This document shows, piece after piece, positions 10,029 through 38,220 of a stretch of 64,000 nt of DNA. The stretch spans positions 112,015 to 176,014 of the forward strand of contig JBHPFI010000001.1 in the NCBI GenBank assembly GCA_042572045.1. The letters run 5' to 3'. The notes under the pieces were generated by a model. The model was not told where the DNA came from. It saw nothing but the letters and a program-made list of their open reading frames with translations, and searched no databases. The number at the start of each line of letters is the position of its first letter. Position 1 is the first letter of the stretch. The position numbers and the translations under genes are program-made. Origin of the DNA: Candidatus Omnitrophota bacterium (GTDB lineage: Bacteria > Omnitrophota > Gorgyraeia > Gorgyraeales > Gorgyraeaceae).

Positions 10029-10057
10029 ATGATACTGCTAAGGGGTCATTGAGTCAA
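10029..10057 (-). promoter_or_regulatory. Sigma70-type promoter module copy: TTGACT-17 nt-TATCAT
   Basis: Minus-sense -35 at 10057-10052, -10 at 10034-10029, exact 17-nt spacer. It is embedded in the last codons of the upstream gene. Confidence 0.6.
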
Positions 10058-11147: not shown

Positions 11148-11162
11148 CTTATCTTCCCCCTG

Positions 11163-12293
11163 CTACCCCCATATCCCCGGAATCTTGTGATTACAGGATG
11201 GACAGCGCCCGTTATGTATATTGTTTTTCAATACCTTGAAATGTATGCGGTGAATTAGGGTTGTATTACATTTTGGGCAAAAGGTGGAGTTATGTAGATG
11301 GCCCGGGACATTGCCTATAGTGACATAATCCAGGCCTGTCTCTTTTGCAATCTTATAGGCCTTTTCAAGGGTTTCTATTGGTGTGGGCGGGAGATTGATG
11401 AGGCGGTAGGATGGTGAAAACCTTGAAAAATGAAGCGGCACCTCATGACCTAGATTGTGTTTTATCCATTTGCACATATCCTGTATCTCGTCTGGATACT
11501 CGTTTATTGTGGGGATGACGAGATTTACAATCTCAAGCCATTTCCCTTCTCTTTTTATTATTTTTAATGCTTCCAGGACCGGCTCGAGCTCTGCAGAAGA
11601 ATTGTCATACGCTCTCTTGGAGAAGCCTTTCAGGTCAATGGTGGCTGCGTCTGTGTATTTTAAAAGCTCTCTTAGGGGCTTGGGGTTTAGCGAGCCATTG
11701 GAGTGCCAGAGGATACGCAAACCTTTTGTCTTGGCAATTTTTGCTATATCGTATACGTATTCGTAAAAAGATATAGGATCATTGTAGGTAAAAGAAAGGG
11801 TCGGGATTTTTCTTTTGAGAGCCTCGTCTACTGCCTCCTGCGGTGAAAGGTCATGGTAGGTCATCTGTTCTATGGAGCGCTGCGAGAGTTGCCAATTTTG
11901 GCAGTGTTGGCAGCGATAGTTGCAGCCAGCTGTACCAAAGCAAAGTATCTGGGTGCCTGGCAGCATATGGAGCTGCGGCTCTTTTTCAATAGGGTCGACC
12001 TGGATGGATGAAGGCCGGGAATGGACAATATTGTAAAGGGTGCCATTTGAGTTTTCTTTGTTGCGGCAAAAGCCTCTTTGCCCCTCTTTTATGATGCAGC
12101 GGCGGAAGCAGATTTCGCACTGGAGGGTACTGTCTTCGAGGCACTTATAAAACATTGCCTCTCGCTTCATCACGTTAGAGATCTTTGCCCACACTCTTTT
12201 TGCGAATATATTGGATGTGAAAACAAGAAATAGACATAGGGTGATTCTTTTTAAAAATGCCTTGCGGGAGATTTTTTGGTTAAGAAAAGTCAT
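11163..12293 (-). CDS. AmmeMemoRadiSam-type radical SAM enzyme (PFL-activase-like) with an N-terminal hydrophobic, Tat-like extension
   Basis: CEICFRRCIIKEGQRGFCRNKEN...GTAGCNYRCQHCQNW (CX3CX2C). C-terminal CPKC..CPSC. N-terminus contains ISRKAFLKRITLCLFLVF. Confidence 0.7.
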   Translation of the reverse strand: MTFLNQKISRKAFLKRITLCLFLVFTSNIFAKRVWAKISNVMKREAMFYKCLEDSTLQCEICFRRCIIKEGQRGFCRNKENSNGTLYNIVHSRPSSIQVDPIEKEPQLHMLPGTQILCFGTAGCNYRCQHCQNWQLSQRSIEQMTYHDLSPQEAVDEALKRKIPTLSFTYNDPISFYEYVYDIAKIAKTKGLRILWHSNGSLNPKPLRELLKYTDAATIDLKGFSKRAYDNSSAELEPVLEALKIIKREGKWLEIVNLVIPTINEYPDEIQDMCKWIKHNLGHEVPLHFSRFSPSYRLINLPPTPIETLEKAYKIAKETGLDYVTIGNVPGHLHNSTFCPKCNTTLIHRIHFKVLKNNIHNGRCPSCNHKIPGIWG

Positions 12294-12356
12294 TTCGACT
12301 CGTTCGAAGAGTATGACAAAAAGGCCTTAATTGCATATCTTTATTGTGCATCTTTT

Positions 12357-12385
12357 ATAATACTACTTTGGGCTCATTGCGTCAA
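12357..12385 (-). promoter_or_regulatory. Promoter module copy: TTGACG-17 nt-TATTAT
   Basis: Shares the spacer CAATGAGCCCAAAGTAG with the other copies. Lies ~65 nt upstream of the radical SAM gene ATG (12293). Confidence 0.55.
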
Positions 12386-12523
12386 GGTAAGGTGTTTTTG
12401 TGTTAAATGTGTGTAAGTAAAGGGGGAAATAATAGGTAAGCTATTCGTATCTTAATGCTGTCAATGCTATATTGACTTTTTACCAGGATTTACGTTATAA
12501 TAGTTCTTAAATAAAGGGGATGC

Positions 12524-12865
12524 ATGCTAAAAAGATATCAGGTGCTTTTAAATGACTGGATGGTACAACGCTTAAAAGAAGCTAGCGAGAGATACGATAT
12601 AAGTCAATCCGAAGTAATACGAATTTTACTATGCTTGCAGGCCATAAGGCTCGTATCTCAACTTTACCCCAAGCAATACAAAGACCCCGGTCTTGAAAAA
12701 GTTGTTCTAAATACCGCAACAAAAGTAAATAAAAAACAAGCTATAAGTTTAGAAGGATTTCATCGTCTTATATCGAAGATATATTACGAGGCACAAAAGG
12801 CAACAGAAGTTCGGGAAAAGCAAGAAAGCAAAATAAAAAATAACCGATCGATCATTCTCCGTTAA
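12524..12865 (+). CDS. Ribbon-helix-helix (CopG/Arc-like) protein
   Basis: N-terminus YQVLLNDWMVQRLKEASERYDISQSEVIRILL fits a beta-strand/helix/helix pattern. AGGGGA Shine-Dalgarno sequence upstream. Confidence 0.5.
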   Translation: MLKRYQVLLNDWMVQRLKEASERYDISQSEVIRILLCLQAIRLVSQLYPKQYKDPGLEKVVLNTATKVNKKQAISLEGFHRLISKIYYEAQKATEVREKQESKIKNNRSIILR

Positions 12866-12970
12866 AACCAAAACCCCCTAAAACCTACACAAATCCCAAC
12901 CTCTCCCTGCGGCGAATGTATATATATTATCTCTTAAATGTGTGTAAGTAGAGAGGAAATCAAAGGTAAG

Positions 12971-13050
12971 CTATTCGTATCTTAACGCCTCTATCGGATT
13001 AAGCTCGGACGCCTTTTTGGCAGGCCACAGGCCAAAAAACATACCTATCT
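12971..13050 (-). pseudogene. Orphan 3' fragment of a MacB/FtsX-type permease gene
   Basis: Encodes GMFFGLWPAKKASELNPIEALRYE* with an in-frame TAG two codons upstream. 40 nt (13008-13047) are identical to macB 24918-24957. Confidence 0.8.
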
Positions 13051-13084: not shown

Positions 13085-15007
13085 TTATAACTGCAGATAG
13101 TCTTCAAGCGGCACGGTCTTCTGCGTTGGAGCATTCTTTTCTTTGTCCGTGTCAATAAACTGCATGCACCATATTTCAAAAGTCAACAGACAAAAGATAC
13201 GATACCCATGATGCTTCAGCTCGATTATTTCACGGGGTTTGATTTTCTGGCGAGGGAATTCATTGAAAATATGCTCAAGTGATCTATTATTGAAAAGACC
13301 TCGTCTCTTTAGACGACTAAGAAGTCTCTCCAGCACAATCGGCCGTTTTGTCAGGAATAAATGAAAAGGCACATCACAGCTTTGTTGGGCTGAATATACG
13401 TATTGTTCCGGCAGATAACGGAGCATCGCCATTTTATGGAACCTGCGTCTATGTCCGGTATTGGAAAGTTTCTGAAAGGTAGTCCCGTCATTAAGCCACT
13501 CCTTGGGCAGTGAGTTTATAAAGGTGATCAGCTTATTATTCAAATACGGCGAGTAATAGTTCATCCCGAATCCCTCTATCGGTTTTTGCGTCGGAGGAAG
13601 CATATACTGATACACTCCGTACAGCATTTTCGTTTCAATAAGGGCATCGAAAAAATTATCCTTGGTAAATGGCAAGTCTATCATACATTTGTGAAGCGAG
13701 ATCTCTTTAAAAGTCTCGGCATCAAGGATCTTTCTCACGGTCTCTATATTATAATGGCGGTACGAGCAAAGCCTGCCAAAAAAATCATCGTATATATTTT
13801 TTTCAGCAAAAAGAGAAAACACATGGTCACTTTCCCAGAAACGCTCCCAGTCATTTACCGAAAGTATTATTTTGTTCAATAGCCTGGCACCCTTACGTAA
13901 TATATACGGAAGACGCCTGAAATACCTGTGCCACTCGGCCACAGGATAATATTCTCCCCATAATGTATCTCCTGCGTCACCGGAGATCATGCTATCCACG
14001 TGTTTACGTGCCTCGAGGATGCACATAAATATAGGAAGCGCTCCCCCAGAAACAGGCTCCTCGACTATATTTATAAAATAAGGCACACAGTCTATAGCAT
14101 CCGGACCTATGACCACAGGATGATGGACCCCTCCGAACTTTTCGGTAATATAGCGTGCCTTCGGCGTCTCGTCAAAAGCGAAGTTCTCATAGGAAGCTGT
14201 AAAGGCATGAACAGGCTTACCAAAAAGCTTTGACGTCTGGATAAATGTAAAGCTAGTGTCGTGGCCGCCGCTTAGAAAACAACCAAGTTCTCCAGGCTTT
14301 ACACAGTTAAGAAAACTTCCGATACTTTTGCTGTAAACACTCTCGTATTCGTCAAGTTTAGCGTTAAGATCCGTGAACGGCCGCCTGTCAAAGATATATT
14401 CAGTTTTCCAGTGATCTGAAACAGTGTATGTTTTATCGTGAACATGGATAAATTGAGTAGGCAGAAGTTTTTTAACCCCCTCTAATTGCGTTTTTTCAGT
14501 ATATGAGAACCCCGTTCGCAAGAATGAAGGAAGCGCCTGTTTATCAAAAGGGGGTGTGTAAGGCAGCAGGTCGAGCAGCAGCTTAAGTGAGCTTGCGAAA
14601 AATAAAGCATTATCATTAGCACAATAATACAGTTGAGTGGCCTGGTGACGGCTGTTAAAAATGAACACTTCGCCTGATGTCCTGTCGTGTATCACGATTA
14701 TAAAAAAACCGTCGAGAAGGGAACAGAACCCCTTCCCTTCTTTAACAAATAGCTGTGCAACTAATTCTTCGAGATTATTTCGACTTGACTCAAAATAGGC
14801 ACCATCTGCCTTTATATCTAATATATCGCCTAATATTATCACTGAATGATTATCGGTAATTCTTGCAGGTCGCGACGAACGAACGGCAACACAAGATTGG
14901 CAATATTCGGCAGTAAAAGGAATCTGCTGGATCGGCTTAGATTCTTTGCCGTCAAGTAAGACCCGTCCAGCGATCGTATATTTATTTTTTAATTCCGGAA
15001 GATTCAC
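13085..15007 (-). CDS. Asparagine synthetase-family adenylating enzyme lacking the N-terminal catalytic Cys
   Basis: GTG start. N-terminus MNLPELKNKY has no Cys2. PP-loop variant CFLSGGHDTSFTF. 640 aa. Confidence 0.7.
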   Translation of the reverse strand: MNLPELKNKYTIAGRVLLDGKESKPIQQIPFTAEYCQSCVAVRSSRPARITDNHSVIILGDILDIKADGAYFESSRNNLEELVAQLFVKEGKGFCSLLDGFFIIVIHDRTSGEVFIFNSRHQATQLYYCANDNALFFASSLKLLLDLLPYTPPFDKQALPSFLRTGFSYTEKTQLEGVKKLLPTQFIHVHDKTYTVSDHWKTEYIFDRRPFTDLNAKLDEYESVYSKSIGSFLNCVKPGELGCFLSGGHDTSFTFIQTSKLFGKPVHAFTASYENFAFDETPKARYITEKFGGVHHPVVIGPDAIDCVPYFINIVEEPVSGGALPIFMCILEARKHVDSMISGDAGDTLWGEYYPVAEWHRYFRRLPYILRKGARLLNKIILSVNDWERFWESDHVFSLFAEKNIYDDFFGRLCSYRHYNIETVRKILDAETFKEISLHKCMIDLPFTKDNFFDALIETKMLYGVYQYMLPPTQKPIEGFGMNYYSPYLNNKLITFINSLPKEWLNDGTTFQKLSNTGHRRRFHKMAMLRYLPEQYVYSAQQSCDVPFHLFLTKRPIVLERLLSRLKRRGLFNNRSLEHIFNEFPRQKIKPREIIELKHHGYRIFCLLTFEIWCMQFIDTDKEKNAPTQKTVPLEDYLQL

Positions 15008-15980
15008 GTGTATGGCTTTTTTCTATATCGAATCTCTGTAATATATCTCTGTCGAGCTCTAAGCTTCTAACGCGACTTCTTATCTCGATCAGCAATATAT
15101 GCAGACTAGCTAGTATGGAACCAATTAGTCCACAGAACAGGGAGACTGCTGCCATAAAAAGACCGATATAAAATATTTTATCCAGCAAAACACTATGAAC
15201 GCTGTTCGCTAAAAGGAGCGATTTGCTTGCCACTGCCAAGACAGATACGCTGAATAACGCTATAGCCAGCCATATAAAAAAAGCTAACGGGTAATACTCG
15301 AGGAAGACCGCTGCTAAAATTTTAACCTGTTCAAGCACATACTCAAAATATGATGTAAAAAGGTGGGATTCCCTGGTCTTGGCGTTTACGCCGATAGGTT
15401 CCCATGCAACCTTTAATCCTATCCGTCTTGACTGGCATAACATCTCAAGGGTATAACTAAAATCACATCTGACAACGATCCTTCTCGCAGCATGACGGCT
15501 AATGGCACGGAATCCGGTCGTCGCATCTGGGATATTTAAGTCAGAGAAACGAGAAGCGATCCTGCTGCCCACTTTATGCAGCATTTTTTTAAGAAGGCTG
15601 TTTTCCTTATTAGCGTCGTTATCGCGGCACCCCAGCACTATATCAGCACGCTTATTACAGATCGGCCTTATGAGTTTTGGTATATCGCTTCCTTTATACT
15701 GGTTATCTCCATCAAGGTTGACAATGATATCCGCTCCTAACGCGAGGGCTACCTCTAATCCATTACAAAACGTCTTTGATAGCCCCTGTTTAACGTTATT
15801 CTTAACGATATAATCGACACCCATGGACTTTGCGACTTCAACTGTCCTGTCAGTGCTACCGTCATCTATGACCAGGGTATATATTTCATCTATTCCCTCT
15901 ATAGGTCTCGGGATTCCGGTAATAACGGAAGGCAATGTCGCCTCTTCGTTCAAACAAGGGATCTGAATAAAAAGCTTCAT
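14982..15980 (-). CDS. Family 2 glycosyltransferase with C-terminal TM helices (polyprenyl-phosphate sugar synthase type, ArnC/DPM1/GtrB-like)
   Basis: MKLFIQIPCLNEE..VIDDGSTDRT..NLDGDNQY, followed by two or three C-terminal TM helices. An alternative TTG start at 16016 would overlap the asnB stop. Confidence 0.75.
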   Translation of the reverse strand: MKLFIQIPCLNEEATLPSVITGIPRPIEGIDEIYTLVIDDGSTDRTVEVAKSMGVDYIVKNNVKQGLSKTFCNGLEVALALGADIIVNLDGDNQYKGSDIPKLIRPICNKRADIVLGCRDNDANKENSLLKKMLHKVGSRIASRFSDLNIPDATTGFRAISRHAARRIVVRCDFSYTLEMLCQSRRIGLKVAWEPIGVNAKTRESHLFTSYFEYVLEQVKILAAVFLEYYPLAFFIWLAIALFSVSVLAVASKSLLLANSVHSVLLDKIFYIGLFMAAVSLFCGLIGSILASLHILLIEIRSRVRSLELDRDILQRFDIEKSHTRESSGIKK

Positions 15981-16012
15981 ACCTGATATTTTAAAACTTT
16001 TCTCTTTTAAGT

Positions 16013-17887
16013 TCAAGGGCTAATATGTTTTAATAATACCAACAACCCCCATATTTTAAAGGAATTGTTCTCTTTGCGCTGTCTGTGCCTGAGCAATAAA
16101 TTTATACACTCATCTCTATTAATAAAGTTGTCAAAAAGCCTGTGATGCGCATTGAATATATCATGGCAATAATCAAACAGATCCGACTTTAACCATGCAG
16201 CTATAGGCATATGCCATCCCTGCTTCTTTTGCCGTAGTATCCTTTGGTCCAGTTTGTCTGTCATTATCTTTTTCAACAGATACTTGGATTCTGTTATTTT
16301 AAAACGCGCACTAAAAGGTAGCTTTATCAAATATTCAGCCAGAGGAAGGTAGAGAAACGGCACCCGCACTTCGAGGGAATTTTTCATACTGTAAACGTCC
16401 GTCCTTAATAAATTATTGAAAGTGAGCCATGAGGTCAGGTCGGAGTTGGCTAGATATTCGAGAGAGGCATCCTTTTTATCTGGACCTCCGTAATATGTGT
16501 CACTGAATGAGTTTAAATCTATTTTATCCAGCAGATCACTCTTTAGTATTGCCTTTTTATCCTCGAACGGAAAGATAACACGCCAGTATGAATGCGCCAT
16601 TTTACTATCTCTGAATTTCGCCCCCTGTATAAAACGCAGGAACTTATAATCGAAGTTAAGCTTTTTATCGGATGAGGGGAAAAAGGAAATCATTTTTTCA
16701 AGAGAACCGAGACCGGCTATTGGGAGGTGCTTGAAGAAACGATAAAGAAAATCCGCTCTGTAAGTAGGGTATCCTAAAAACAGCTCATCCCCCCCTTCTC
16801 CGGAAAGACAGACCTTAACATATTTACTGGCTAACCGACTTACTAAATAGGTTGAGACACACGCCTGATCCGCGATAACAGAATCGCAAATTTCAGGAAG
16901 ATCTTCCAGGAACCGGATCACATCACCTTCGCGGCATACGATCTCAGCATGATCTGTTTTATACTTTTCAGCAACAAGTCTCGCATATGGCCTCTCATCG
17001 TAGGATTTATTATCATATCCTACCGAAAACGTCTTAAGACGACGATGGTTATTCTGGCATAAAAAATGTACTATCGAACTGGAATCAATACCTCCGCTTA
17101 AAAAACATCCGACCTCGACATCGGACTGGATATGTCTTTTTATCGAATCCTTCATGAGCTCTTCTACATCATGGATTATCTCTCTGGCAGAAAACTTTTC
17201 TTTACCTGTATATATATTCGGCCTCCAAAAAGACCTGACAACGGGCCTCAAATGGTTATTGACCTGCAAAAAATGCCCCGGCAAAAGTTCAAACAGATCC
17301 TTGTAGATCGTTCTTTTACCTGGGATATAATTGTAGTGAAAATACAGATTCAACCCTTCAGGATCGATATCTTCTGTTACCGCACCGCTCTTGATCAGGG
17401 ATCTGGTTTCAGAAGAAAACATAAACCTACAGCTGTTTCGGTAAAAATAAAGTGGTTTTATTCCAAAGTGGTCCCTAGCTAGAGTAAGGACATTCCTTTT
17501 TACATCAAATATACACATGGCGAACATTCCATGAAGAAGATTAAAACACTCAACACCTTTCTCTTCATACAAATGGACGATAACTTCCCCGTCCCCTTTT
17601 GTTCGAAATAAGTGGCCCTTACTTTCTAATTCAGAGCGTAACTCTTTGAAATTATAAATCATCCCGTTATAGACAAGGACCAGGCTTTTATCCTCATTGA
17701 ACAACGGTTGGTCGCTGTTAATAATGTCGACAATGCTCAAACGACTGGCAGCTAGACCGACATGATCGCTCTCATAAATACCCTGGCTGTCCGGCCCCCG
17801 ATGCAATAACAATGAGTGCATACGTGAGAGGTATCCGGCCTCTTCTTTATATCTTTCGGGGGAATAAATTCCGCAAATACCACACAT
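16013..17887 (-). CDS. asnB: Asparagine synthase (glutamine-hydrolysing), canonical
   Basis: MCGICGIY Ntn-Cys start. PP-loop CFLSGGIDSSSIV. 624 aa. Confidence 0.85.
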   Translation of the reverse strand: MCGICGIYSPERYKEEAGYLSRMHSLLLHRGPDSQGIYESDHVGLAASRLSIVDIINSDQPLFNEDKSLVLVYNGMIYNFKELRSELESKGHLFRTKGDGEVIVHLYEEKGVECFNLLHGMFAMCIFDVKRNVLTLARDHFGIKPLYFYRNSCRFMFSSETRSLIKSGAVTEDIDPEGLNLYFHYNYIPGKRTIYKDLFELLPGHFLQVNNHLRPVVRSFWRPNIYTGKEKFSAREIIHDVEELMKDSIKRHIQSDVEVGCFLSGGIDSSSIVHFLCQNNHRRLKTFSVGYDNKSYDERPYARLVAEKYKTDHAEIVCREGDVIRFLEDLPEICDSVIADQACVSTYLVSRLASKYVKVCLSGEGGDELFLGYPTYRADFLYRFFKHLPIAGLGSLEKMISFFPSSDKKLNFDYKFLRFIQGAKFRDSKMAHSYWRVIFPFEDKKAILKSDLLDKIDLNSFSDTYYGGPDKKDASLEYLANSDLTSWLTFNNLLRTDVYSMKNSLEVRVPFLYLPLAEYLIKLPFSARFKITESKYLLKKIMTDKLDQRILRQKKQGWHMPIAAWLKSDLFDYCHDIFNAHHRLFDNFINRDECINLLLRHRQRKENNSFKIWGLLVLLKHISP

Positions 17888-17892
17888 GTTCT

Positions 17893-19314
17893 TTATCCTA
17901 TGATCTTACTCAGAGAAGATATCCCATATCTTAAAATACACATCCGCTCTCTAAAACTTCCCGCCAGCTTGAGTCTTTCCAGAACATATCCCGGGCGCAC
18001 ATAAAAACCTCTTAATGCCTTTTTTCTTAATTCGATAAGCCTTTCTCTGGTCAGAGATAATGTAGGGCACTGAGACCCGGTATAGGAGTCTCTTGAAACC
18101 CCAGAAGCAGAGTAGTTATCGATCAACCCATTCTCTTTTATTATTTGAAAAAGCTCGGTCCCCTCAAACGCTGACGGTAAAAAGAAATCGAGATAATCAG
18201 GCGCTATCTTTCTTGAAAAAGAGATGGTTTCTCCTATAGTATCCTCTGTATCCCACGGGAAACCTATTATGAAATAGGCATACGTCTGTATACCATTCTT
18301 CCTGCAGAGACTAAAGGCTTCTTCGATATCACTTACCGTGATATCCTTTTTTATTTTATCCAGAATATACTGAGAACTGCTTTCAACCCCCAGAGAAAGA
18401 GCAAAACACCCGCTTTCTTTCATCATATTAAGCATATGATCGTCCAGCGTATCAACCCTGCTGTTAGCGAACCATCTGATCTTTAAATTCTTATCAATAA
18501 TGCCTCTACATAGATCGATGACCCATTTCCTGTCAAGTGAGAACAAATCAGACTTAAAATGGAAGTCAAAGATATTATGCTCATGATTGCAAAGTTCTAT
18601 CTCTTCAATAATCTTTTCAACTGAGCGCCTTCTATGGTCCTTACCGTAAGCAAAAGAAGTAAGGCAAAAAATACACTGATACGGGCACCCCCTGCTTACC
18701 TCTATCAGTCCAAGTGGCCGTCCATTATCGGGCCTTTTATATAATTCATTCTTTATTAAGCCTCTGTTGACTATTGGGATAGCGTCTAAATCCTTGAGAA
18801 ACGGTCTTTTATCGGTCTTGGAGATCGACCCCTTATAGCGATAAAAGACCCCCCTGACCCTGTTTTTATCCTCATATTCCAGAAATTCATATAATGTAAA
18901 ATCCGTCTCTCCGTAAAATACAGCATCTATGGAACTTTCATTTTCCATAACTTTTCCGGCTATATTCTCGATCATGCCGCAGCGTAATATAACGATCAGG
19001 TCCTTTTTTATTTTTTTCGCTATCTGAGCGCACGCGATATCATCCTTTAATGTGGGGATCGTCCCGTTTATTACCAGGATATCCGGCAATATCTCTTTCA
19101 GATCGAGCTCATAATCCCAGACTGACTTTTTTTCGATCGGATAATCTCTGATAATAACTTCGTACCCATGACCTTCCAACACCGCCGCCATAGTCAATAA
19201 TTCGTGCGGAGGGCGGGTTACTGAGATCAAAAAATTTCCAACGTCACTTTGACAGCGATCATCACGAATGAAAAGGCCTGTAGGAGGATTTACCATTAAA
19301 ACTTTTTTTTCCAT
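17893..19314 (-). CDS. B12-binding domain radical SAM enzyme (paralogue C)
   Basis: NPPTGLFIRDDRCQ N-terminus. SRGCPYQCIFC (CX3CX2C). GVESSSQ. Confidence 0.8.
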   Translation of the reverse strand: MEKKVLMVNPPTGLFIRDDRCQSDVGNFLISVTRPPHELLTMAAVLEGHGYEVIIRDYPIEKKSVWDYELDLKEILPDILVINGTIPTLKDDIACAQIAKKIKKDLIVILRCGMIENIAGKVMENESSIDAVFYGETDFTLYEFLEYEDKNRVRGVFYRYKGSISKTDKRPFLKDLDAIPIVNRGLIKNELYKRPDNGRPLGLIEVSRGCPYQCIFCLTSFAYGKDHRRRSVEKIIEEIELCNHEHNIFDFHFKSDLFSLDRKWVIDLCRGIIDKNLKIRWFANSRVDTLDDHMLNMMKESGCFALSLGVESSSQYILDKIKKDITVSDIEEAFSLCRKNGIQTYAYFIIGFPWDTEDTIGETISFSRKIAPDYLDFFLPSAFEGTELFQIIKENGLIDNYSASGVSRDSYTGSQCPTLSLTRERLIELRKKALRGFYVRPGYVLERLKLAGSFRERMCILRYGISSLSKIIG

Positions 19315-19317
19315 AAC

Positions 19318-20745
19318 TTAGACTACCCTCTTTACCAATCTACATCCCCATTTTATGTAGTTAAAAAGGACCCTGGGGTTTTTAGCGCCCATCATTTTTT
19401 TAACTATATATTTAGGCCGAAAATAAAAAGAGGCCAACATATCCTTACGCAGGTCTGTGATTTCATCAGGGGACAGCGAAAAAGTACGCAGTATCGGATT
19501 AATATGGGAAAACCTTTCATAATCCCTTGATATGAAAAGATCCTCTTTACCAGCCATTTCATATAACTCGCTGCCTATTAAGGGATAAGGCACATTCACT
19601 TCCATAAAGTCAGGGTCTAACTTAAGAAGAAGTTCTTTAGTCTCATTGATAGTTGTATGGTCATCCCATGGAAAACCAATGATACAGTGAAAAAATGTCC
19701 GTAAACCGCTTTCTTTTGCCAGCCTGTGCGCATCTTCAATGTCTTTAACGCATATGTTCTTTTTGATCTTTTTCAAGATAGTATCGCTGCCGCTCTCTAC
19801 GCCGAAACCTACTATATCACAACCTGCCTTCTTCATCGCTTTAAACATCTCCATGTCGGTCCTATCTACTCTGCTATTAGCGCCCCAGGAGATACTGATC
19901 TTCTCCTCACCTACTCTCTTACAAAAAGCCATCACCCATTTTTTATCAAGGGTAAAGTTGTCGGATCGAAAAAAGAAGCTGCTCACATCATATCTTACAA
20001 GGCACTCCTTGATCTCTCCGATAACATTATCGACACTTCTGGTCTGCACTTTCTTCCCTAAATATACCGGTGCTGAACAAAAGATACATTCACCAGGGCA
20101 ACCTCTTGAAAGGTAGATATAAGCTATCGGCTCCCCTGAGTCGGGCCGGACATAATCCTTTCTGTTTAAAAAATATCTCGGTGGAGAAGGATATCCGTCT
20201 ATATGAAAAGTACTTCCGACATCCAGACTCACAGGCTCGTGAATTGTCCGACCGGACAGCACATAGGCATTTTTTAGCCTGTCGACCCTGCCGAGATCCA
20301 TTAAAATATCCTGGATAATCTGCTCAAAATTCCTGACAATAAAGTATATTTTATTACGGCTGTTTAATTCAACGACAGCAAGTTCGCCTCTAAGATATGG
20401 GAAATCCAGGAACGGCGCTTTAATGATAAAAAAGGGATCTTTTACCCTGTCGTTTAAAGACTTGATAAAATTCATATCGTTTTTAAAGGTCCCCTGGGTA
20501 GTCTCTATATAATAACAATCCGCGTTGAAACTGGCTGCGTCAGAAAGGACATCTTCCAGATCGAATCCCGGCACGCTATAATCCTTTAAAAAGACTTCAT
20601 GACCGTATTTTTGGAAGAGTCCGGCCAGATAAAGGATCTGGACAGGTTCTCGGATATTCTCTGCAACGCGGGAATTTACATCTATCTGGCACCGCTCATC
20701 GCGTATAAAAAGTCCTGTAGGAGGGTTGCAGAAAAATATTTTCAT
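19318..20745 (-). CDS. B12-binding domain radical SAM enzyme (paralogue B)
   Basis: NPPTGLFIRDERCQ and SRGCPGECIFC. I chose the ATG at 20745 because it forms an ATGA overlap with the upstream stop. The track start is 20763. Confidence 0.8.
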   Translation of the reverse strand: MKIFFCNPPTGLFIRDERCQIDVNSRVAENIREPVQILYLAGLFQKYGHEVFLKDYSVPGFDLEDVLSDAASFNADCYYIETTQGTFKNDMNFIKSLNDRVKDPFFIIKAPFLDFPYLRGELAVVELNSRNKIYFIVRNFEQIIQDILMDLGRVDRLKNAYVLSGRTIHEPVSLDVGSTFHIDGYPSPPRYFLNRKDYVRPDSGEPIAYIYLSRGCPGECIFCSAPVYLGKKVQTRSVDNVIGEIKECLVRYDVSSFFFRSDNFTLDKKWVMAFCKRVGEEKISISWGANSRVDRTDMEMFKAMKKAGCDIVGFGVESGSDTILKKIKKNICVKDIEDAHRLAKESGLRTFFHCIIGFPWDDHTTINETKELLLKLDPDFMEVNVPYPLIGSELYEMAGKEDLFISRDYERFSHINPILRTFSLSPDEITDLRKDMLASFYFRPKYIVKKMMGAKNPRVLFNYIKWGCRLVKRVV

Positions 20746-22145
20746 GTAAAAAGTATGTCCCAAAAGGCCTTAAAATATTTCCTTAAAGCTGGTATTGACA
20801 TATTATCTCCCAATTTTTTAAAAATTATCCTTCTGCGAACATAAAATCTAAGGTACATTGACTTAATATATCTTATAATCTCCTCTGGGCTAAAAGGCGT
20901 GTCCATTAAAGGAGGCGCTGAGACATTTTTTTTGTCCAGGACATATTGCCTCCAATAATCTTCACTCCCATTTTTAGTTCTGTGCTCTTCATAGAATTTT
21001 GTCCCCGGGAAAAGGGTAAAACGGGTCACCTGTATTTCGTCAAGCGGCATTGAAAGCGCAAAGCGTTTTGTTTTCTTCAGACTAGAGATAGTCTCTCCGG
21101 GACATCCCAGCATAAAAAACCCAAATACGGTTATCCCATTCTCGTGGGTCATCCTGACGGTATCAGCTATGCGTGACAACTTTTCATTTTTTCCCAGACG
21201 ATCCAGGATCCTTTGATCGCCGCTTTCAATACCATACATTATGCGATACAGGCCGGCTGCCTTCATCTCTCCCAGCAACTCCCTGTCGATCAGATCTGCC
21301 CTGGTCCTTATAGTCCAGATGATCTTTATATCGCGCTTAATGATCTCACGGCATATTTCTGATGCGCGCTCCCTATTAATACTAAAAGTCTGATCGTAAA
21401 AATCTATCTCTCTTATGTCGTATTTGTTGTAACATTCCTCTATTTCATCTACAATATTCCTGGGACTCCGCATATAGCATTTCGATAAAGTCGATACACA
21501 ATATTTACACTTAAAAGGACAGCCCGTCCCGGTTAGCATTGCTGTAAAATTCTTTTTTTTGCAAATGAAGTTGCCATACAGATCATTCTTCAATAAGTCC
21601 CTGGATGGAAAAGGTATCGAGTCCGGATCTTTTTGTATTTTTTTTGTGATCTTATTTATGAAGGTCTCCCCGTTTTTCCTATAACATAACCCCTCTATTC
21701 GATGATACTCATCGATCTTACCAAAAGAGGACAAAAAAGCGCCCAGGGAATCTTCAGCACCACCTATAAGCCCAATGTCTATTTCAGGATGAGCCATTGT
21801 TTCCAGAGGATAGAGGCTGAGATGGAATCCGCCGACAATAACAGGAATGTCTACAGCCCTTTTTATCTCTCTTATCCAATCAAGTACAGGATGAAAGAGA
21901 TACGTCGTTATGGTAAAACCTAAAAGATCCGGACCGTATCTTTTAATGTAACCGACCAGCTCATCAAATGAAAAGTCTTCGACCTGCAGATCGATCAACC
22001 GGACTTCGTGGCCACACTTCCGTATTATTGAAGCTACATAACATAGATTTAGCGGAGGTATCGCCCCCATGTTCTTTTCCTGCGCTTCCAGGCAGTTCCA
22101 GTGGACTTCCGGTAAAAAATTATTATATAGGAGAAGTACTTTCAT
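20742..22145 (-). CDS. B12-binding domain radical SAM enzyme (paralogue A, more divergent)
   Basis: N-terminal Rossmann-like B12 domain (VIVGGFH). TGTGCPFKCKYC. ATGA overlap with the upstream gene. Confidence 0.8.
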   Translation of the reverse strand: MKVLLLYNNFLPEVHWNCLEAQEKNMGAIPPLNLCYVASIIRKCGHEVRLIDLQVEDFSFDELVGYIKRYGPDLLGFTITTYLFHPVLDWIREIKRAVDIPVIVGGFHLSLYPLETMAHPEIDIGLIGGAEDSLGAFLSSFGKIDEYHRIEGLCYRKNGETFINKITKKIQKDPDSIPFPSRDLLKNDLYGNFICKKKNFTAMLTGTGCPFKCKYCVSTLSKCYMRSPRNIVDEIEECYNKYDIREIDFYDQTFSINRERASEICREIIKRDIKIIWTIRTRADLIDRELLGEMKAAGLYRIMYGIESGDQRILDRLGKNEKLSRIADTVRMTHENGITVFGFFMLGCPGETISSLKKTKRFALSMPLDEIQVTRFTLFPGTKFYEEHRTKNGSEDYWRQYVLDKKNVSAPPLMDTPFSPEEIIRYIKSMYLRFYVRRRIIFKKLGDNMSIPALRKYFKAFWDILFT

Positions 22146-24826
22146 TTTACCCAGAAATATATGTTATAGAACGACTTTGTCCTTTGATCGTATGTGATAA
22201 CGTCTACTCTCTTTGGCAATGGACCTTTCAGAGGTAACTTAATATTTATTTCCTCCTCATCTCCTGAAGCTAGGCTCACGACGCCCGTTGCCCGCGGCGC
22301 AAGGATTTCTTCTATTTCCCTATTATTGGCTCTGTCAAATAATATCTTATCAATTTGTACAAACCCTTCGCCAGAATCATCTTGCCTTACTGCAAATATA
22401 TTTATAGAGCCCCCTTCCTCTGCCAAGTCAAGCCAAGTTCCGTAGATAGCTGCATAATCTTTAAAATTATGGCTTATACTTTCTTTTATCTTTTTCATCT
22501 TCTTGTCTCCCACATATAAATCTATGTTATCTGTTATTTCTGTGACTAAGCAATATACTTTATAATTATCCGGTTTTATATCCAAATCGCCTCTTAATAC
22601 ACTTGACCTTTTAGTATTTATTAAATCCATCCTCATATCACTACCAGCGTAAAAGCTCGTATCACTACCAGCGTAAAAGCTAACAGGTGCCCACTTATGT
22701 CCTCCAATAGATGTCTCATATAAAGATCTGGCATCTATAGTATAATCTGAGATAAAAATGTTATATGTATACGCATTTTTAGCCAAAGCATTATTTCTTA
22801 TTATGAAGCTAAAAATAAGATTTTCGTTTATCTTTTCCAAAGGGAATTTCCCTAACGTAGCATAACTGCCATCACTCCCTATATCAATAACGCTATATGC
22901 GTCTCCTGAAAAATTGAAACTTCTCCCTGATGTTCCGTTTTTCTCCAAAACTCCTTCTGCCATAATTCTGTCAAAAACTCCATCTTTATCCATGTCAACG
23001 AAGTCAAAGAAGACCTCCTTATCCTGTATGACATTCTTACCGGCCTTAATTGTCACATACGGGAAAAAAACCTCTGTCATTTCAGTACGCCTGACGTTAA
23101 AAAGCGGGTCCACATCTACTGAGATTTTGAATCTTTCTAAACGCTCGCTATTCTTTACTAAATACGGATAACATATAGTGGCTAGCTTACCGTTATCATA
23201 AAGGCGTATTACCTTAGTGGAACTCGTTATCCGCTCATAAAATGAGGGGGGATTTTCTGCCTTTGCACGATACGAAATTGTAAAAAGATCTTTAAGTTCT
23301 CCCGTTGTGATGTAATTTATTTGTTCGTTTTCTAAAAATTCAAACGGGGTTTTACTCATTTCTAATAGTTCGCTTTTGTCTTTTTCTAAAACAAATGTTT
23401 CGGCGTCCTTCACATGCCCATAAAACTGATCCCCTCCCCCACTCTCATATCTAAAACTCATTGTTTCACGGTAAGGCAAAAAATCATAAGCAGAATAATA
23501 AAATTCATATTTTCCATATATATCCAAAACTTGTTTTTTTATATTAAGAAAACAAAATAGTCCTAAACAAATCATTAAGCCCAGGAACAGAAACAAAGAG
23601 ACTATTTTTGAGACATTCTTTCTGGAAACATATCTAAACACAAAATAACTTCCGCATAAAATAACGATAAAACTGATCAAGAAGGGTATGCAAATATGAT
23701 ATATAATTACTTTTAACAAATTTTTGACGCTGTCCAGAACAAGATAATTATTTTTATAATACACCAAAAAATAACCCTGTACTGCGGCTATACTTGCGAG
23801 ATAGCTTAATGTGAACCTCGACGTTGTAACTCTTTTGAACAGATAAGCTAAAGCGTATCCTATGACTATACTTAACATTGGAACTGCCGGAAGAACTCCT
23901 CGAGGAGCATGATGCTGAGGAGAGATTATTGTAAGAAAAAAATATGACGATATATAAGAAATTAAAAGTGAATTTATGAATCTTTTCTGTTTATCAAAAA
24001 AATACAAAAAAATAAAGATCGCTAGTATAGGTATTATGAGCTGTAATAATATACTATAATAATCAAAATGCTCCAGCACCAAGTGCCCATAATGTCTTGC
24101 TAATTCTGACTCTATGATATTATCCCCTCTATCTGTATAAAACCACTTTCCTAATAATCGGTATCTCCATATAAATACTGGGGACAACAATATAAAAAGT
24201 GCTATTAAAAACAATAAAGTATGCTTGGCTTTACCCAGGTAGACTTTTTTGTCTTTTTTCTTATGTGCCCATTGCAGAAGTAAAAATATAAAAAGCCCAC
24301 CCACGCAGGCCAAATAAAAAGTCTTCATATTAAAAGCAAGAAACACTGATATACATCCAAACAAAACCCACTTTTTAGATTGAACTATATTTGCTTTGTA
24401 AAGACAGTACAAAGATAAAGTGATAAGTAAAGTAGGTATTGTATATCCCTCTATAACATGCGCCCATCCTACATGTAAAGGAAATATTGCCAATATAAGT
24501 GCAGATAAGGATGCTGCGATTACTCCATATGCCTCTTTTGATAATTTATAAACTATTACTATGGTCAAAGTACTAAAAATAGCGTTGGCCAGTTTAAGGA
24601 TAATAAAATTCTGCCCAAAAACTCTCATAAAACCTGCATAAAGTATGCTTAATCCCGGAGAAAAGGGCAATAAATCCTTCCAGCCATGCTCTAAAAGTCG
24701 AATGGCATGAAAGGCAATTTCACAATATCTCAGTGGAGTAGTAAGCGATAAATAAATTCTAATGATCGCCGCTGAGGCAATGATAGCAAAACCTATAAAA
24801 AGGTAACTTCTTCTCTGTATCATCAA
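22142..24826 (-). CDS. GT-C fold membrane glycosyltransferase (ArnT/PMT, GT39-like) with a ~450-aa periplasmic C-terminal domain
   Basis: About 12-14 TM helices in the first ~430 aa with ArnT-like topology, then a soluble domain. The first-loop acidic motif is degenerate (YCEIAF). Confidence 0.6.
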   Translation of the reverse strand: MMIQRRSYLFIGFAIIASAAIIRIYLSLTTPLRYCEIAFHAIRLLEHGWKDLLPFSPGLSILYAGFMRVFGQNFIILKLANAIFSTLTIVIVYKLSKEAYGVIAASLSALILAIFPLHVGWAHVIEGYTIPTLLITLSLYCLYKANIVQSKKWVLFGCISVFLAFNMKTFYLACVGGLFIFLLLQWAHKKKDKKVYLGKAKHTLLFLIALFILLSPVFIWRYRLLGKWFYTDRGDNIIESELARHYGHLVLEHFDYYSILLQLIIPILAIFIFLYFFDKQKRFINSLLISYISSYFFLTIISPQHHAPRGVLPAVPMLSIVIGYALAYLFKRVTTSRFTLSYLASIAAVQGYFLVYYKNNYLVLDSVKNLLKVIIYHICIPFLISFIVILCGSYFVFRYVSRKNVSKIVSLFLFLGLMICLGLFCFLNIKKQVLDIYGKYEFYYSAYDFLPYRETMSFRYESGGGDQFYGHVKDAETFVLEKDKSELLEMSKTPFEFLENEQINYITTGELKDLFTISYRAKAENPPSFYERITSSTKVIRLYDNGKLATICYPYLVKNSERLERFKISVDVDPLFNVRRTEMTEVFFPYVTIKAGKNVIQDKEVFFDFVDMDKDGVFDRIMAEGVLEKNGTSGRSFNFSGDAYSVIDIGSDGSYATLGKFPLEKINENLIFSFIIRNNALAKNAYTYNIFISDYTIDARSLYETSIGGHKWAPVSFYAGSDTSFYAGSDMRMDLINTKRSSVLRGDLDIKPDNYKVYCLVTEITDNIDLYVGDKKMKKIKESISHNFKDYAAIYGTWLDLAEEGGSINIFAVRQDDSGEGFVQIDKILFDRANNREIEEILAPRATGVVSLASGDEEEINIKLPLKGPLPKRVDVITYDQRTKSFYNIYFWVK

Positions 24827-24880
24827 GGATCTCTCTTTTTAGCCGCAATTTCCTGCAGCTTCTAATAATGGAAATGTTAT

Positions 24881-26836
24881 TTATTCGTATCTCAATGCTT
24901 CGATAGGATTCAGTCGAGACGCCTTTTTGGCAGGCCACAGGCCAAAAAACATACCTACGGCTATAGAAAAACTTGCGGCAAGTATAATATTAGATATGGT
25001 AACTTTGGTAGCCCATCCAGCCAGGGACGAAAGCGTTATAGATGTTGCTATGCCAAGCAGTATGCCCATCAACCCCCCGCTCAATGTCATAACCACTGAT
25101 TCAATAAGAAACTGTGTCATTATGTCCTTCGCCTTGCCGCCTACTGCCTTGCGCAGGCCGATCTCACGAGTGCGCTCTGTCACAGAAACAAGCATGATAT
25201 TCATGATGCCTATTCCGCCCACAAGAAGCGATATAGCAGCAATGCAGCCCAAAAGCATGCTCATGGTCTTGGTGGTGCTTGATAGCATTTCCTGGATCTC
25301 ACTCATATTATGCATATGAAAATAATCATCGGGGTTCTTGTATATGCGGTGCCGCTTTATAATAAAGTCCCTTATATCATTCTCTGCCTCTTCCATGGAT
25401 TCGATATCGATTACCTCAGCATAAATACCGTCAAAATAATCTTTACCCAATACCCTGTACATAGCAGTAGTCACAGGGATATAGATGACATCGTCACGGT
25501 CCCGCCAGCCGCTTGCACCTTTTTCAGGCGCGATGCCAATCACCTTAAAATTAATCCGGTTTATCTTTATTGTCTCGCCGACAGGATTTATATTGCCGAA
25601 AAGTTTTTCAACCACGCTTCTCCCCAGTATCGCTACTTTAGCGCGCTGGTCCATTTCTTCAGAGGTAAACCACCTGCCTATATCAGGTATGGCTGCCCGC
25701 ATCTGGCCATAGTCATACCCGACCCCTTCTACCCTGGTACTCCAGTTCTCGCTTTTATATACGACCTGACCGCTTCCGCTGGCATATCCGCTTACTCTTT
25801 TTATCAAAGCCAGGTTTCCAATGCCTTCGGCATCTCCTGCCATAAAACGCGTCACAGATCCTGCTGCCCTGGCCGCGCCCCTGACTTTACCAGAACCTCC
25901 TTGTATAGATAAAAGATTAGAGCCGAGTGTCTTAAGTCTTTGTTCCATTGATGCCTTAGCTCCCTGTCCAAGCGCAAGCATTGCTATGACTGCTGCCACG
26001 CCAAACAAGATACCGAGCATTGAAAGAAACGACCGGACCTTATTTGAAAAAATAGCCCTGAATGACTGACGGACGTGTTCCTTGAACTCAACCTTACCAA
26101 AATAAGAATGGCCCTGGCCTGTCAGCTCTTTAATAGATACCTTGATGTCTTGGCGGCTTTTATTTTTGTCTTTGGCCTCATCAGAGACTATTTTACCATC
26201 GCGCATCGTTATGATCCTTTTTGCGTGCTGGGCGATTTCTTGTTCGTGCGTGACAAGGATTATAGTCTTACCCTGCGAGTTTAAGCCCTTTAGGATCTTT
26301 ATTATCTCTTCTTCGCTCTTTGTATCCAGGTTTCCTGTGGGTTCGTCTGCAAAAATGATCAGTGGGTCATTTACCAGCGCTCTCGCAATAGCCACTCTCT
26401 GCTGCTCGCCCCCTGATAATTCACTTGGCATATGTTTTGAACGTTCAGCAAGGCCTACTGACTCTAAATTCTTCCGAGCGTTTTCTATCCCCTTGTTTTT
26501 GCCGGAATAGATAAGGGGCAACTCCACGTTCTCAAGGGCGCTGGTCCTGCGAAGCAAATGAAACTGCTGGAATACAAAACCCACGAGTCGATTTCTAAGT
26601 TGTGCGAGTTCACCATCTGAGAGTTGTGAAATCTCAGTACCCAAAATATTATACGACCCTTTGTCTGGACGGTCCAAAAAACCCAGCATGTGAAGAAGAG
26701 TGGATTTACCTGAGCCAGAAGGTCCCATGATGGCCACAAATTCACCCTGACCGATATTAAGCGAAACATCGTCTAGTGCAGCAATAGACGCATCGCCTTT
26801 GCCATACGTTTTACAAATATTTTTTAGCTCTATCAT
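24881..26836 (-). CDS. macB: MacB-type ABC transporter (fused ATPase and FtsX permease)
   Basis: GPSGSGKST and LSGGEQQRVAIARAL. C-terminal four-TM FtsX domain ending EALRYE. Confidence 0.85.
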   Translation of the reverse strand: MIELKNICKTYGKGDASIAALDDVSLNIGQGEFVAIMGPSGSGKSTLLHMLGFLDRPDKGSYNILGTEISQLSDGELAQLRNRLVGFVFQQFHLLRRTSALENVELPLIYSGKNKGIENARKNLESVGLAERSKHMPSELSGGEQQRVAIARALVNDPLIIFADEPTGNLDTKSEEEIIKILKGLNSQGKTIILVTHEQEIAQHAKRIITMRDGKIVSDEAKDKNKSRQDIKVSIKELTGQGHSYFGKVEFKEHVRQSFRAIFSNKVRSFLSMLGILFGVAAVIAMLALGQGAKASMEQRLKTLGSNLLSIQGGSGKVRGAARAAGSVTRFMAGDAEGIGNLALIKRVSGYASGSGQVVYKSENWSTRVEGVGYDYGQMRAAIPDIGRWFTSEEMDQRAKVAILGRSVVEKLFGNINPVGETIKINRINFKVIGIAPEKGASGWRDRDDVIYIPVTTAMYRVLGKDYFDGIYAEVIDIESMEEAENDIRDFIIKRHRIYKNPDDYFHMHNMSEIQEMLSSTTKTMSMLLGCIAAISLLVGGIGIMNIMLVSVTERTREIGLRKAVGGKAKDIMTQFLIESVVMTLSGGLMGILLGIATSITLSSLAGWATKVTISNIILAASFSIAVGMFFGLWPAKKASRLNPIEALRYE

Positions 26837-37967: not shown

Positions 37968-38160
37968 AACTTTAACCCCCCCTCCTAAAAGAAAAGGCAA
38001 CCTTGGCTTTATGTCAGAATTGCCTTATGCCTTACAAATATAATAATTTCCTAATCATCTCTTGCTCTATTGTGGAGATTCTAATAAATCCTGCCACCCC
38101 ATTGTGGCCTGAAAACACACAAAAAGGCCTTAATACATACTGTATCTTTGTATGCAATAT

Positions 38161-38189
38161 ATGGTACTACTTTGGGCTCATTGAGTCAA
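38161..38189 (-). promoter_or_regulatory. Promoter module copy: TTGACT-17 nt-TACCAT
   Basis: Exact 17-nt spacer CAATGAGCCCAAAGTAG. Begins 10 nt after the rlmD-like stop. Confidence 0.55.
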
Positions 38190-38220
38190 GGTAAGGTGTC
38201 TTTGTGTTTATTATCGATCA

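Follow-up and report, generated by a model that had tools for sequence, protein, structure and literature searches.

A seven-gene block of a Candidatus Omnitrophota genome combines a GT2/GT-C pair with amidotransferase-like and radical-SAM enzymes and may encode an envelope glycosylation module

We analyzed a 64-kb stretch (64,000 nucleotides; here, the window) of the genome of a Candidatus Omnitrophota bacterium (contig JBHPFI010000001.1, positions 112,015 to 176,014). Positions 13085 to 24826 of the window are a block of seven co-directional open reading frames (ORFs) on the minus strand. An earlier note, made from the letters of the sequence, had described this block as a coupled operon for periplasmic glycosylation and had assigned each product to an enzyme family. 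We confirmed the coordinates and reproduced all seven domain assignments with Pfam: PMT_2; Radical_SAM with B12-binding, three times; GATase_7 plus Asn_synthase; Glycos_transf_2; and Asn_synthase with a vestigial GATase_7. Domain tests used Pfam gathering cutoffs and NCBIfam curated (equivalog) cutoffs. The block encodes a glycosyltransferase (GT) of the GT-C type, three radical S-adenosylmethionine (SAM) enzymes (A, B, and C), an asparagine synthetase (AS) homologue of the AsnB type, a membrane-anchored family 2 GT (GT2), and a second, Cys-less AsnB homologue, which we call AsnB*. From upstream to downstream, the genes are as follows.

22142..24826, minus strand: GT-C glycosyltransferase gene, 893 or 894 aa (ATG 24823 or TTG 24826)
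20742..22145, minus strand: radical-SAM enzyme A gene, 467 aa, cluster motif CPFKCKYC
19318..20745, minus strand: radical-SAM enzyme B gene, 475 aa from ATG 20745, cluster motif CPGECIFC
17893..19314, minus strand: radical-SAM enzyme C gene, 473 aa, cluster motif CPYQCIFC
16013..17887, minus strand: canonical glutamine-dependent AsnB gene, 624 aa, N-terminus MCGICG
14982..15980, minus strand: membrane-anchored GT2 gene, 332 aa, two C-terminal transmembrane helices
13085..15007, minus strand: AsnB* (Cys-less AsnB homologue) gene, 640 aa, N-terminus MNLPE, start GTG 15007

The seven genes are tightly coupled. The two ATGA start/stop overlaps described earlier are present at 22142-22145, between the GT-C gene and gene A, and at 20742-20745, where ATG 20745 is the start of gene B. 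Genes B and C are separated by 3 nt (19315-19317) and gene C and AsnB by 5 nt (17888-17892), and the GT2 and AsnB* genes overlap by 26 nt when AsnB* starts at GTG 15007. A third overlap, TTGA at 16013, had been suggested between AsnB and GT2. We found that three homologous GT2 proteins begin MKLFIQIPCLNEE, which is ATG 15980 here. We therefore placed the GT2 start at ATG 15980, so the suggested overlap at 16013 is lost and a 32-nt gap takes its place. No ORF beyond the seven was found inside the block, and 32 nt is its largest gap. The GT-C protein most likely starts at ATG 24823, which agrees with its 893-aa NCBI entry.

The earlier note had paired the GT2 with the GT-C protein, and both halves of this pairing hold. 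The GT2 matches PF00535 Glycos_transf_2 at 71 bits. All of its top NCBIfam models (AglJ, PpgS, Dol-P-hexose transferase, PgfS, and ArnC) describe polyprenyl-phosphate sugar synthases, and it reaches the equivalog cutoff of none (AglJ, 71.2 bits versus 325; ArnC, 37.8 versus 529). The best PDB matches are DPMS (5mlz), ArnC (9hwj/9bhc/8vxh, over residues 2 to 293), and GtrB (5ekp). The alignment with ArnC spans the full length of the protein, membrane region included, and the translation has two hydrophobic C-terminal segments. These matches identify the GT2, as judged from its sequence, as a polyprenyl-phosphate sugar synthase of the ArnC/DPMS type.

The GT-C protein is annotated as "glycosyltransferase family 39" by NCBI and matches PF13231 PMT_2 over residues 57 to 220 (48.3 bits versus a cutoff of 26.1). 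About 13 transmembrane helices (residues 1 to 447) are followed by a C-terminal soluble domain (residues ~450 to 894). We built an AlphaFold2 model on an alignment of 35 sequences. In this model, residues 1 to 330 have a predicted local distance difference test (pLDDT) score of ~90; a single-sequence model had a pLDDT of 36.5. We compared the membrane domain with the PDB by Foldseek, a comparison with ArnT and PMT having been called for earlier, and found that the top 45 matches were all GT-C enzymes, including OST/STT3, ArnT, AglB, PglB, PMT, ALG, and Emb. ArnT was the best match by target-normalized template-modeling score (TM-score), at 0.57. The model indicates that the 894-aa protein carries a GT-C membrane fold. 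By analogy with its family, the protein is predicted to use a polyprenyl-phosphate-linked donor and to act in the periplasm.

We also found that the GT-C protein is nearly an orphan. In an exhaustive HMMER scan of 1.84 billion representatives, it had 7 relatives at E<=1e-10, and its last ~290 residues (~610 to 894) had no homologue. A word-indexed search returned no match except the protein itself. The closest homologue, at 27% identity, sits among radical-SAM genes beside a second PMT_2 gene. The GC content of the gene is 0.345, and its GC content at third codon positions (GC3) is 0.31, versus 0.42 to 0.44 in the other six genes. The low GC content and the few homologues suggest that this acceptor-specific component had a separate history or evolved fast.

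All three radical-SAM enzymes carry the CxxxCxxC cluster motif and match Radical_SAM in Pfam (A, 86.2 bits; B, 82.2 bits; C, 74.4 bits). Genes B and C are 33% identical to each other and 25 to 26% identical to gene A, and they share the motif NPPTGLFIRD(D/E)RCQ, with the N-terminal forms NPPTGLFIRDERCQ in B and NPPTGLFIRDDRCQ in C. Gene B has an orthologue in locus L004 that is 57% identical. The family of gene C has ~110 members, mostly from Omnitrophota, and most of these relatives carry PF02310. The earlier note had called all three enzymes B12 binding. The radical-SAM assignments and the motif common to B and C stood, but only gene A passed the Pfam B12-binding cutoff of 32.1 (A, 67.6 bits; B, 23.2 bits; C, 18.1 bits), and cobalamin use is a secure prediction for gene A only.

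The nearest relatives of these enzymes point to sugar chemistry. The best NCBIfam match of all three is HpnJ, at 141 to 203 bits versus a cutoff of 577.6 (A, 170.6; B, 141), followed by BchE (107 to 160 versus 481) or AprD4 (96 to 113 versus 500; B, 113). None of the three reaches the HpnJ, BchE, or AprD4 equivalog cutoff. In the PDB, the best match of all three is AprD4 (A, 6fd2, E=4.6e-21; B, E=1.8e-25; C, E=1.6e-25). AprD4 carries out the C3' deoxygenation of apramycin, and HpnJ carries out the ring contraction of glucosamine in the hopanoid head group. Both of these nearest characterized relatives thus act on glucosamine-type (amino-sugar) rings. AprD4 works as a radical diol dehydratase on an aminoglycoside sugar, and its Rossmann-like N-terminal domain binds no cobalamin (PMC12931638). 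The enzymes of the block share with AprD4, HpnJ, and BchE an N-terminal Rossmann/B12-like domain and the CxxxCxxC core. They differ from AprD4 in that gene A has a solid B12-binding domain and in that the block has no AprD3-like partner. The earlier note had favored C-methylation. Because the closest relatives, AprD4 and then HpnJ and BchE, include no methylase, C-methylation is not our best guess; the nearest known chemistry would be radical rearrangement or deoxygenation of sugar rings.

The two AS-like proteins are of different kinds. AsnB has a strong GATase_7 domain (140.8 bits) with the Cys nucleophile in MCGICG and a strong Asn_synthase domain (270.3 bits). It passes TIGR01536 (427.8 bits versus a cutoff of 267.1). 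Its highest score, 448 bits, is to the exopolysaccharide (EPS)-locus amidotransferase model TIGR03108 and lies below the cutoff of 817. By these matches, AsnB is a canonical glutamine-dependent AsnB-type amidotransferase, whose substrate may be aspartate or a sugar acid.

In AsnB*, the Asn_synthase domain scores 90.2 bits, and GATase_7 is a remnant of 32 bits. No NCBIfam model scores above its cutoff (TIGR01536, 108.7 versus 267.1), and the family, ~135 proteins among 5.8 billion clusters, has no curated model. The best profile matches are the hydroxyamidotransferase TsnB9 and AsnB; CarA (1q15) is marginal (E=5e-4). The absence of the N-terminal Cys and the SGGHDT PP-loop that had been noted earlier proved to be family traits. 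Cys is absent from position 2 in all members examined (0/120), and SGGxDT is invariant in 36 sequences (S246, G247, G248, D250, and T251), which have 53 invariant columns in all. The alignment with AsnB showed that AsnB* also lacks the NGE glutamine-binding motif. AsnB* is therefore best described as a predicted ATP-dependent amide-forming AS-like enzyme with a dead N-terminal nucleophile (Ntn) glutaminase domain and a constrained synthetase site.

Directly after AsnB* in seven related loci (L003, L004, L006, L007, L008, L036, and L037), we found a gene for a ~222-aa class-I glutamine amidotransferase. This glutaminase is GuaA-N-terminus-like, and its Cys-His-Glu motifs, GICFG(S/A)Q for the nucleophile and QFHPE, are intact in all five aligned copies. 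The lactam formation suggested for AsnB* by the earlier note gained no support from these comparisons. Like beta-lactam synthetase, CarA, and the lasso cyclases, AsnB* has the AS synthetase fold, with ATP-dependent carboxylate adenylation and no glutaminase nucleophile. However, it has no specific sequence affinity to these cyclases, does not belong to their branch of AS-like enzymes, and lies far below the CarA and lasso-cyclase models (NF033535, 41.6 bits versus a cutoff of 525). The glutaminase in relatives argues for intermolecular nitrogen transfer, so a split amidotransferase, and not a lactam cyclase, fits AsnB* and its separate glutaminase in those genomes. The fold and the adenylation are also those of PesC, an AS-like enzyme that converts a carboxylate to an amide and then, with a second ATP, to a nitrile, with nitrogen from glutamine or ammonia (PMC13060819). 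By analogy, an amide-to-amidine or amide-to-nitrile step by AsnB* is conceivable.

The co-occurrence survey that had been proposed earlier showed that the genes are co-conserved. An independent metagenome contig (L035) carries PMT_2, B12 radical-SAM, an extra PMT_2, radical-SAM, radical-SAM, AsnB, GT2, and AsnB* genes in the order seen in the window. Because the order recurs in an independent contig, it is beyond chance. Seven further Omnitrophota-like loci, among them L036, L037, L003, L004, L006, and L008, carry subsets of the block, which are rearranged in the six named. A different version is found in ~15 Bdellovibrionota loci, including that of Halobacteriovorax marinus SJ. Here AsnB*, a nucleoside diphosphate (NDP)-sugar dehydrogenase (TIGR03026, 266 bits versus a cutoff of 189.8), GT2, a 538-aa protein, and AsnB form a compact five- or six-gene core amid housekeeping genes. 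A PMT_2 GT-C gene adjoins this core in three loci (L002, L013, and L026); in L002, which is the H. marinus locus (FQ312005.1, ~2.985 to 2.995 Mb), it lies divergently upstream. In L009, L014, and L017, from two Bacteriovoracaceae and one "Deltaproteobacteria" metagenome-assembled genome, the core is accompanied by one radical-SAM gene.

Over 36 distinct loci, AsnB* is accompanied by AsnB in 23, GT2 in 19, a radical-SAM gene in 12, and a detectable GT-C gene in 9, counts that include many truncated contigs. The GT-C count is an underestimate because GT-C proteins diverge fast. Genes related to the radical-SAM and AsnB genes also turn up in large glycan loci, where GT4, GT2, Bac_transf, epimerase, and aminotransferase genes accompany them; relatives of the radical-SAM genes occur there with an Arn-like aminotransferase/GT2/PMT_2 set as well. 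The AsnB* family itself, as sampled here, is nearly restricted to Omnitrophota-like genomes and Bdellovibrionota.

Some proteins of the related loci have no counterpart in the window. Two or three SPASM radical-SAM genes lie beside AsnB* in loci such as L036, L037, and L118, and the same three loci encode a giant double radical-SAM protein of 1142 to 1174 aa with two Radical_SAM domains and weak B12-binding (L036:5165-8593, L037:2511-6035, and L118:71-3652). The window has neither. In the Bdellovibrionota core, the conserved 538-aa protein (L002:13923-15539) is soluble and lies between GT2 and AsnB, the place held by radical-SAM genes in the Omnitrophota version; it matched no Pfam family above threshold and, by sequence, nothing in the PDB.

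The block also has a peculiar setting. On its upstream side, same-strand genes continue after a 54-nt gap with MacB (24881-26836), HlyD, and OEP and then DUF1302, LolA-like, and MMPL/HAE3 genes; downstream, the gene string stops at 13085. We found that an 86-nt direct repeat, with copies that are 84% identical, brackets the seven genes.

24872..24957, minus strand: left direct-repeat copy, the true macB 3' end (last ~25 codons, stop codon, and 9 nt downstream)
12962..13047, minus strand: right direct-repeat copy, an orphan macB 3' fragment, 37 nt past the AsnB* stop codon

The copies share an exact core of 40 nt (24918-24957 = 13008-13047), which holds the inverted repeat TTTTTGGC-N9-GCCAAAAA. 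A third, partial copy of ~62 nt (12396-12458) brackets a further ~0.5-kb segment containing a small ORF. The right copy is as similar to the macB ends of related genomes (L046, 89.6%; L040, 85.7%) as the resident copy is. An exact core and, after it, a diverged second copy of the gene end would be expected from recombination at the macB 3' end. The repeats look like the traces of successive insertions there, with the gene end duplicated each time. For the small ORF (12524-12865, plus strand, 113 aa), a promoter close to consensus, TTGACT-18-TATAAT, lies at 12472-12501; the product matches a ribbon-helix-helix family weakly and below cutoff (RHH_3, E=0.014).

Neither MacB, HlyD, nor OEP was found near any of 37 loci encoding an AsnB* relative, and MMPL was likewise absent from them. 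Conversely, genomes with a MacB that is 75 to 89% identical retain OEP-HlyD-MacB, and block genes follow macB in none of them; synteny stops at the macB stop codon in all fetched loci. Among these fetched loci, there was no duplicated macB end, and no empty site was recovered. We looked for macB-end fragments beside the cluster in other genomes and found none, and no integrase is present. Because of the macB-end repeats and the absence of MacB near related loci, we treated the seven genes as a discrete unit. The position of the block beside MacAB-TolC looks like a secondary insertion, and the repeats and the comparison of loci speak against a simple continuation of a longer native operon into the block.

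The enzyme families, the GT-C fold, the coupling of the genes, and their co-conservation are shown by the data above; from them we infer, as follows, the identity of the sugar, the order of the reactions, what each tailoring enzyme does, how the product is flipped, and what it is transferred to. The seven genes may well act as a self-contained module to decorate the cell envelope with a lipid-carried sugar by the logic of GT2 plus GT-C periplasmic glycosylation, a reading that we hold with moderate confidence. The GT2 would load the sugar from a nucleotide sugar onto polyprenyl phosphate at the cytoplasmic face of the membrane. By analogy with the reduced Bdellovibrionota version, the loaded sugar is probably a uronic acid, since the Bdellovibrionota core has an NDP-sugar dehydrogenase. 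The five soluble enzymes would tailor the sugar, either as nucleotide sugar or in lipid-linked form; they depend on ATP or SAM and so would have to act in the cytoplasm. AsnB would convert a carboxylate to a carboxamide with glutamine and ATP. AsnB* would form a second ATP-dependent C-N bond. Free ammonia or another amine would supply its nitrogen, as would a separate class-I glutaminase in relatives. On the sugar ring, deoxygenation, rearrangement, or C-alkylation would fall to the three AprD4/HpnJ-like radical-SAM enzymes. A flippase would then move the finished lipid-linked sugar across the membrane, and the GT-C protein would transfer it in the periplasm to lipopolysaccharide (LPS) or lipid A, another glycan, or a surface protein. 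Its C-terminal domain would presumably recognize the acceptor.

Several observations weigh against this model. The C-terminal domain of the GT-C protein has a pLDDT below 50 even with the alignment. At the catalytic Asp column of the first periplasmic loop, which is Asp in at least 90% of the 35 aligned relatives, the GT-C protein has Glu36, an acidic residue that departs from the consensus. The block lacks a flippase gene like GtrA or ArnE/F. No NDP-sugar dehydrogenase was found in the 64-kb window, so the uronic-acid substrate is extrapolated from another phylum. No glutaminase gene, intact or decayed, was found by tblastn downstream of AsnB* in the window, and in L035 the glutaminase is reduced to a 73-aa remnant (L035:12072-12293) with its catalytic core deleted. 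AsnB* here would therefore have to use free ammonia, another amine, or ammonia from the neighboring AsnB. Finally, every tailoring enzyme scores far below all characterized equivalog cutoffs, so the chemistry assigned to each of them is putative.

The envelope-module model can be carried further. AsnB might make an amide on a sugar carboxylate, which AsnB* would reactivate to give an amidine, where a trans glutaminase is present, or a nitrile, where it is not, as PesC does with peptides. Together with the radical-SAM ring chemistry, this would yield an unprecedented envelope sugar. The AsnB* family is nearly restricted to Omnitrophota-like genomes and Bdellovibrionota; the latter prey on other bacteria, and Omnitrophota have been proposed to depend on hosts in a similar way. 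The sugar could therefore be a lifestyle-linked envelope trait, for example for self-protection or prey contact, and its genes in this genome would have come on a cassette that integrates into the macB 3' end. We regard this extended version, which is built by analogy, as improbable.

A different origin, possible in our view but rather unlikely, is that the block is one piece of a conventional pathway for a surface polysaccharide (O-antigen, capsule, or EPS). Its enzymes would then tailor nucleotide sugars or the growing repeat unit, and the GT-C protein would be a branching or ligating transferase inside that larger pathway instead of the last enzyme of an autonomous module. The large glycan loci in which relatives of the radical-SAM and AsnB genes lie among GT4, GT2, Bac_transf, epimerase, and aminotransferase genes are consistent with this. 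So is the highest score of AsnB, to the EPS-locus model TIGR03108, and uronamide-forming AsnB homologues, WbpS and WbtH, do work in O-antigen pathways. However, no GT4, Wzx/Wzy, ABC O-antigen exporter, or initiating phosphoglycosyl transferase was found within ~20 kb on either side of the block. Moreover, repeats flank the block as they would an inserted unit, and the Bdellovibrionota core is also compact and lies among housekeeping genes.

Another pathway would place the product in the membrane itself: the block would act on the polar head groups of glycolipids, hopanoid-like or other, with the GT2 in the role of HpnI, the radical-SAM enzymes in that of HpnJ, and export by the MMPL/LolA-like/DUF1302 proteins. 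HpnJ is the best NCBIfam match of all three radical-SAM enzymes, but its scores lie far below the cutoff, as does that of HpnN, to which the MMPL/HAE3 protein encoded upstream on the same strand has weak similarity. True HpnJ occurs only in genomes with squalene-hopene cyclase (SHC) and HpnH (PMC12324291), and neither is among the window ORFs scanned with Pfam or NCBIfam; no hopanoid genes accompany the radical-SAM genes of the block. We therefore rejected the hopanoid side-chain pathway as such. The absence of MMPL and MacB neighbors from all 37 AsnB* loci and the macB-end repeats, which separate the block from the upstream genes, count against the wider lipid head-group reading as well, and the Hpn pathway has no role for a GT-C enzyme. 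We consider that wider reading improbable.

That the block makes a secreted peptide or small molecule, whether like an aminoglycoside or like a ribosomally synthesized and posttranslationally modified peptide (RiPP), for export by MacB-HlyD-TolC is very improbable. In its favor, RiPP pathways often include AS-like and B12 radical-SAM enzymes (PMC13060819), ApyD and rSAM_ocin models are among the NCBIfam matches of the block proteins, SPASM radical-SAM genes adjoin AsnB* in L036, L037, and L118, a MacB-type exporter lies 54 nt upstream, and AprD4 is an aminoglycoside enzyme. However, the block has no precursor-peptide ORF and no gap able to hold one, its place next to MacB is found in this genome only and looks like the result of an insertion, a polyprenyl-type GT2 plus GT-C pair is without a role in such pathways, and the Bdellovibrionota core includes a nucleotide-sugar dehydrogenase.

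The envelope-module model has precedents for its two ends. ArnC/ArnT with ArnE/F, GtrB/GtrC with GtrA, CsbB/YfhO with GtcA, and RgtE/RgtA-D are three-component periplasmic glycosylation systems. The block resembles them in pairing a membrane GT2 of the polyprenyl-phosphate type with a GT-C enzyme. Its GT-C partner is fast-evolving and nearly an orphan, as is GtrC, and RgtE/RgtA-D also handle a uronic acid, galacturonic acid (GalA). In contrast to these systems, the block has no flippase gene of its own, has five soluble tailoring enzymes (two AS-like and three radical-SAM) between the transferases, and encodes a GT-C protein with a ~440-residue C-terminal domain. It also lacks equivalents of ArnA, ArnB, and ArnD and hence is not a member of the Arn pathway.

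The AS-like enzymes likewise match known systems in part. AsnB resembles WbpS, WbtH, and the TIGR03108 proteins in having the Cys nucleophile and a full synthetase domain, in its glycan context, and in lying beside an NDP-sugar dehydrogenase in the Bdellovibrionota loci. It differs in scoring below the TIGR03108 cutoff (448 versus 817) and in being paired with a Cys-less AS-like enzyme that those pathways lack. The WbuX/WbuY/WbuZ and PseA-type acetamidino-sugar systems are split PP-loop amidotransferases with a separate class-I glutaminase. The AsnB* relatives of the seven loci are similar in that the activating enzyme and the glutaminase are separate polypeptides. However, AsnB* has an asparagine-synthetase fold with a dead Ntn domain and is not of the WbuX/TIGR03573 type, and its associated glutaminase is GuaA-N-terminus-like, not HisH/HisF, and is missing from the window.

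The earlier note had not recognized the seven-gene combination as a described pathway, and this still applies. It had also named three findings that would refute its reading, and our analysis made none of them. No published description of the combination was found in literature searches, and no curated family covers it. NCBIfam gave no call beyond the generic one for AsnB and has no equivalog-level model for AsnB* or the radical-SAM enzymes. Searches of the literature on AS-like enzymes acting on uronic acids, on AglU, and on Halobacteriovorax LPS found nothing relevant. Many uncharacterized glycan loci exist. This one is distinguished by the AsnB/AsnB* pair, with or without a trans glutaminase; by AprD4/HpnJ-like radical enzymes in a putative envelope-glycosylation setting; by the narrow taxonomic range of AsnB*; and by the apparent repeat-bracketed insertion at macB.

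The Arn, Gtr, and Rgt routes matter for antibiotic resistance, serotype, and immune evasion. If the envelope-module model is true, it extends the GT2 plus GT-C route of envelope decoration to a sugar heavily remodeled by two AS-like and three anaerobic radical enzymes, chemistry that is not yet documented for envelope sugars. The compact and recognizable AsnB* family would then mark the pathway in two bacterial lineages, with very small or predatory members, whose surfaces have hardly been studied. H. marinus SJ can be cultured, and its reduced version of the block offers an experimental way in.

The surroundings of the block hold further genes and elements. The MMPL/HAE3 resistance-nodulation-division (RND)-type transporter, which has a sterol-sensing-like domain, lies with the LolA-like and DUF1302 proteins at 29457-34041 (minus strand). 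This set may be a lipid or lipoprotein export system, and it adjoins the block in no related locus. Downstream of 13085, the small plus-strand ORF is followed by an AmmeMemoRadiSam radical-SAM gene, which is above the TIGR04337 cutoff at 336 bits and is not related to the block. Positions 10038-12293 (minus strand) hold this gene, which lacks its usual AMMECR1 and Memo partners here, and then a DUF4015-like putative glycosyl hydrolase (below cutoff).

At the start of the window, a 1244-aa ORF (6-3740, plus strand) has as its sole Pfam match a NUDIX domain near residues 924 to 1025 and is followed by an inverse-autotransporter beta-domain protein (3824-4729, plus strand). A strong GC skew switches sign at ~8 to 10 kb in the window, where gene orientation flips. 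The window contains no tRNA genes and no Rfam family, cobalamin riboswitch included. It does contain a dispersed promoter-like element of ~50 to 110 nt, AACACAAAGACACCTTACCTTGAC[TG]CAATGAGC[CT]CAAAGTAGTAT[CT]AT.., with copies that are 90 to 95% identical at 12330-12430, 38135-38235, 42590-42707, and 46014-46100, all on the minus strand. The element sits upstream of at least four unrelated minus-strand genes.

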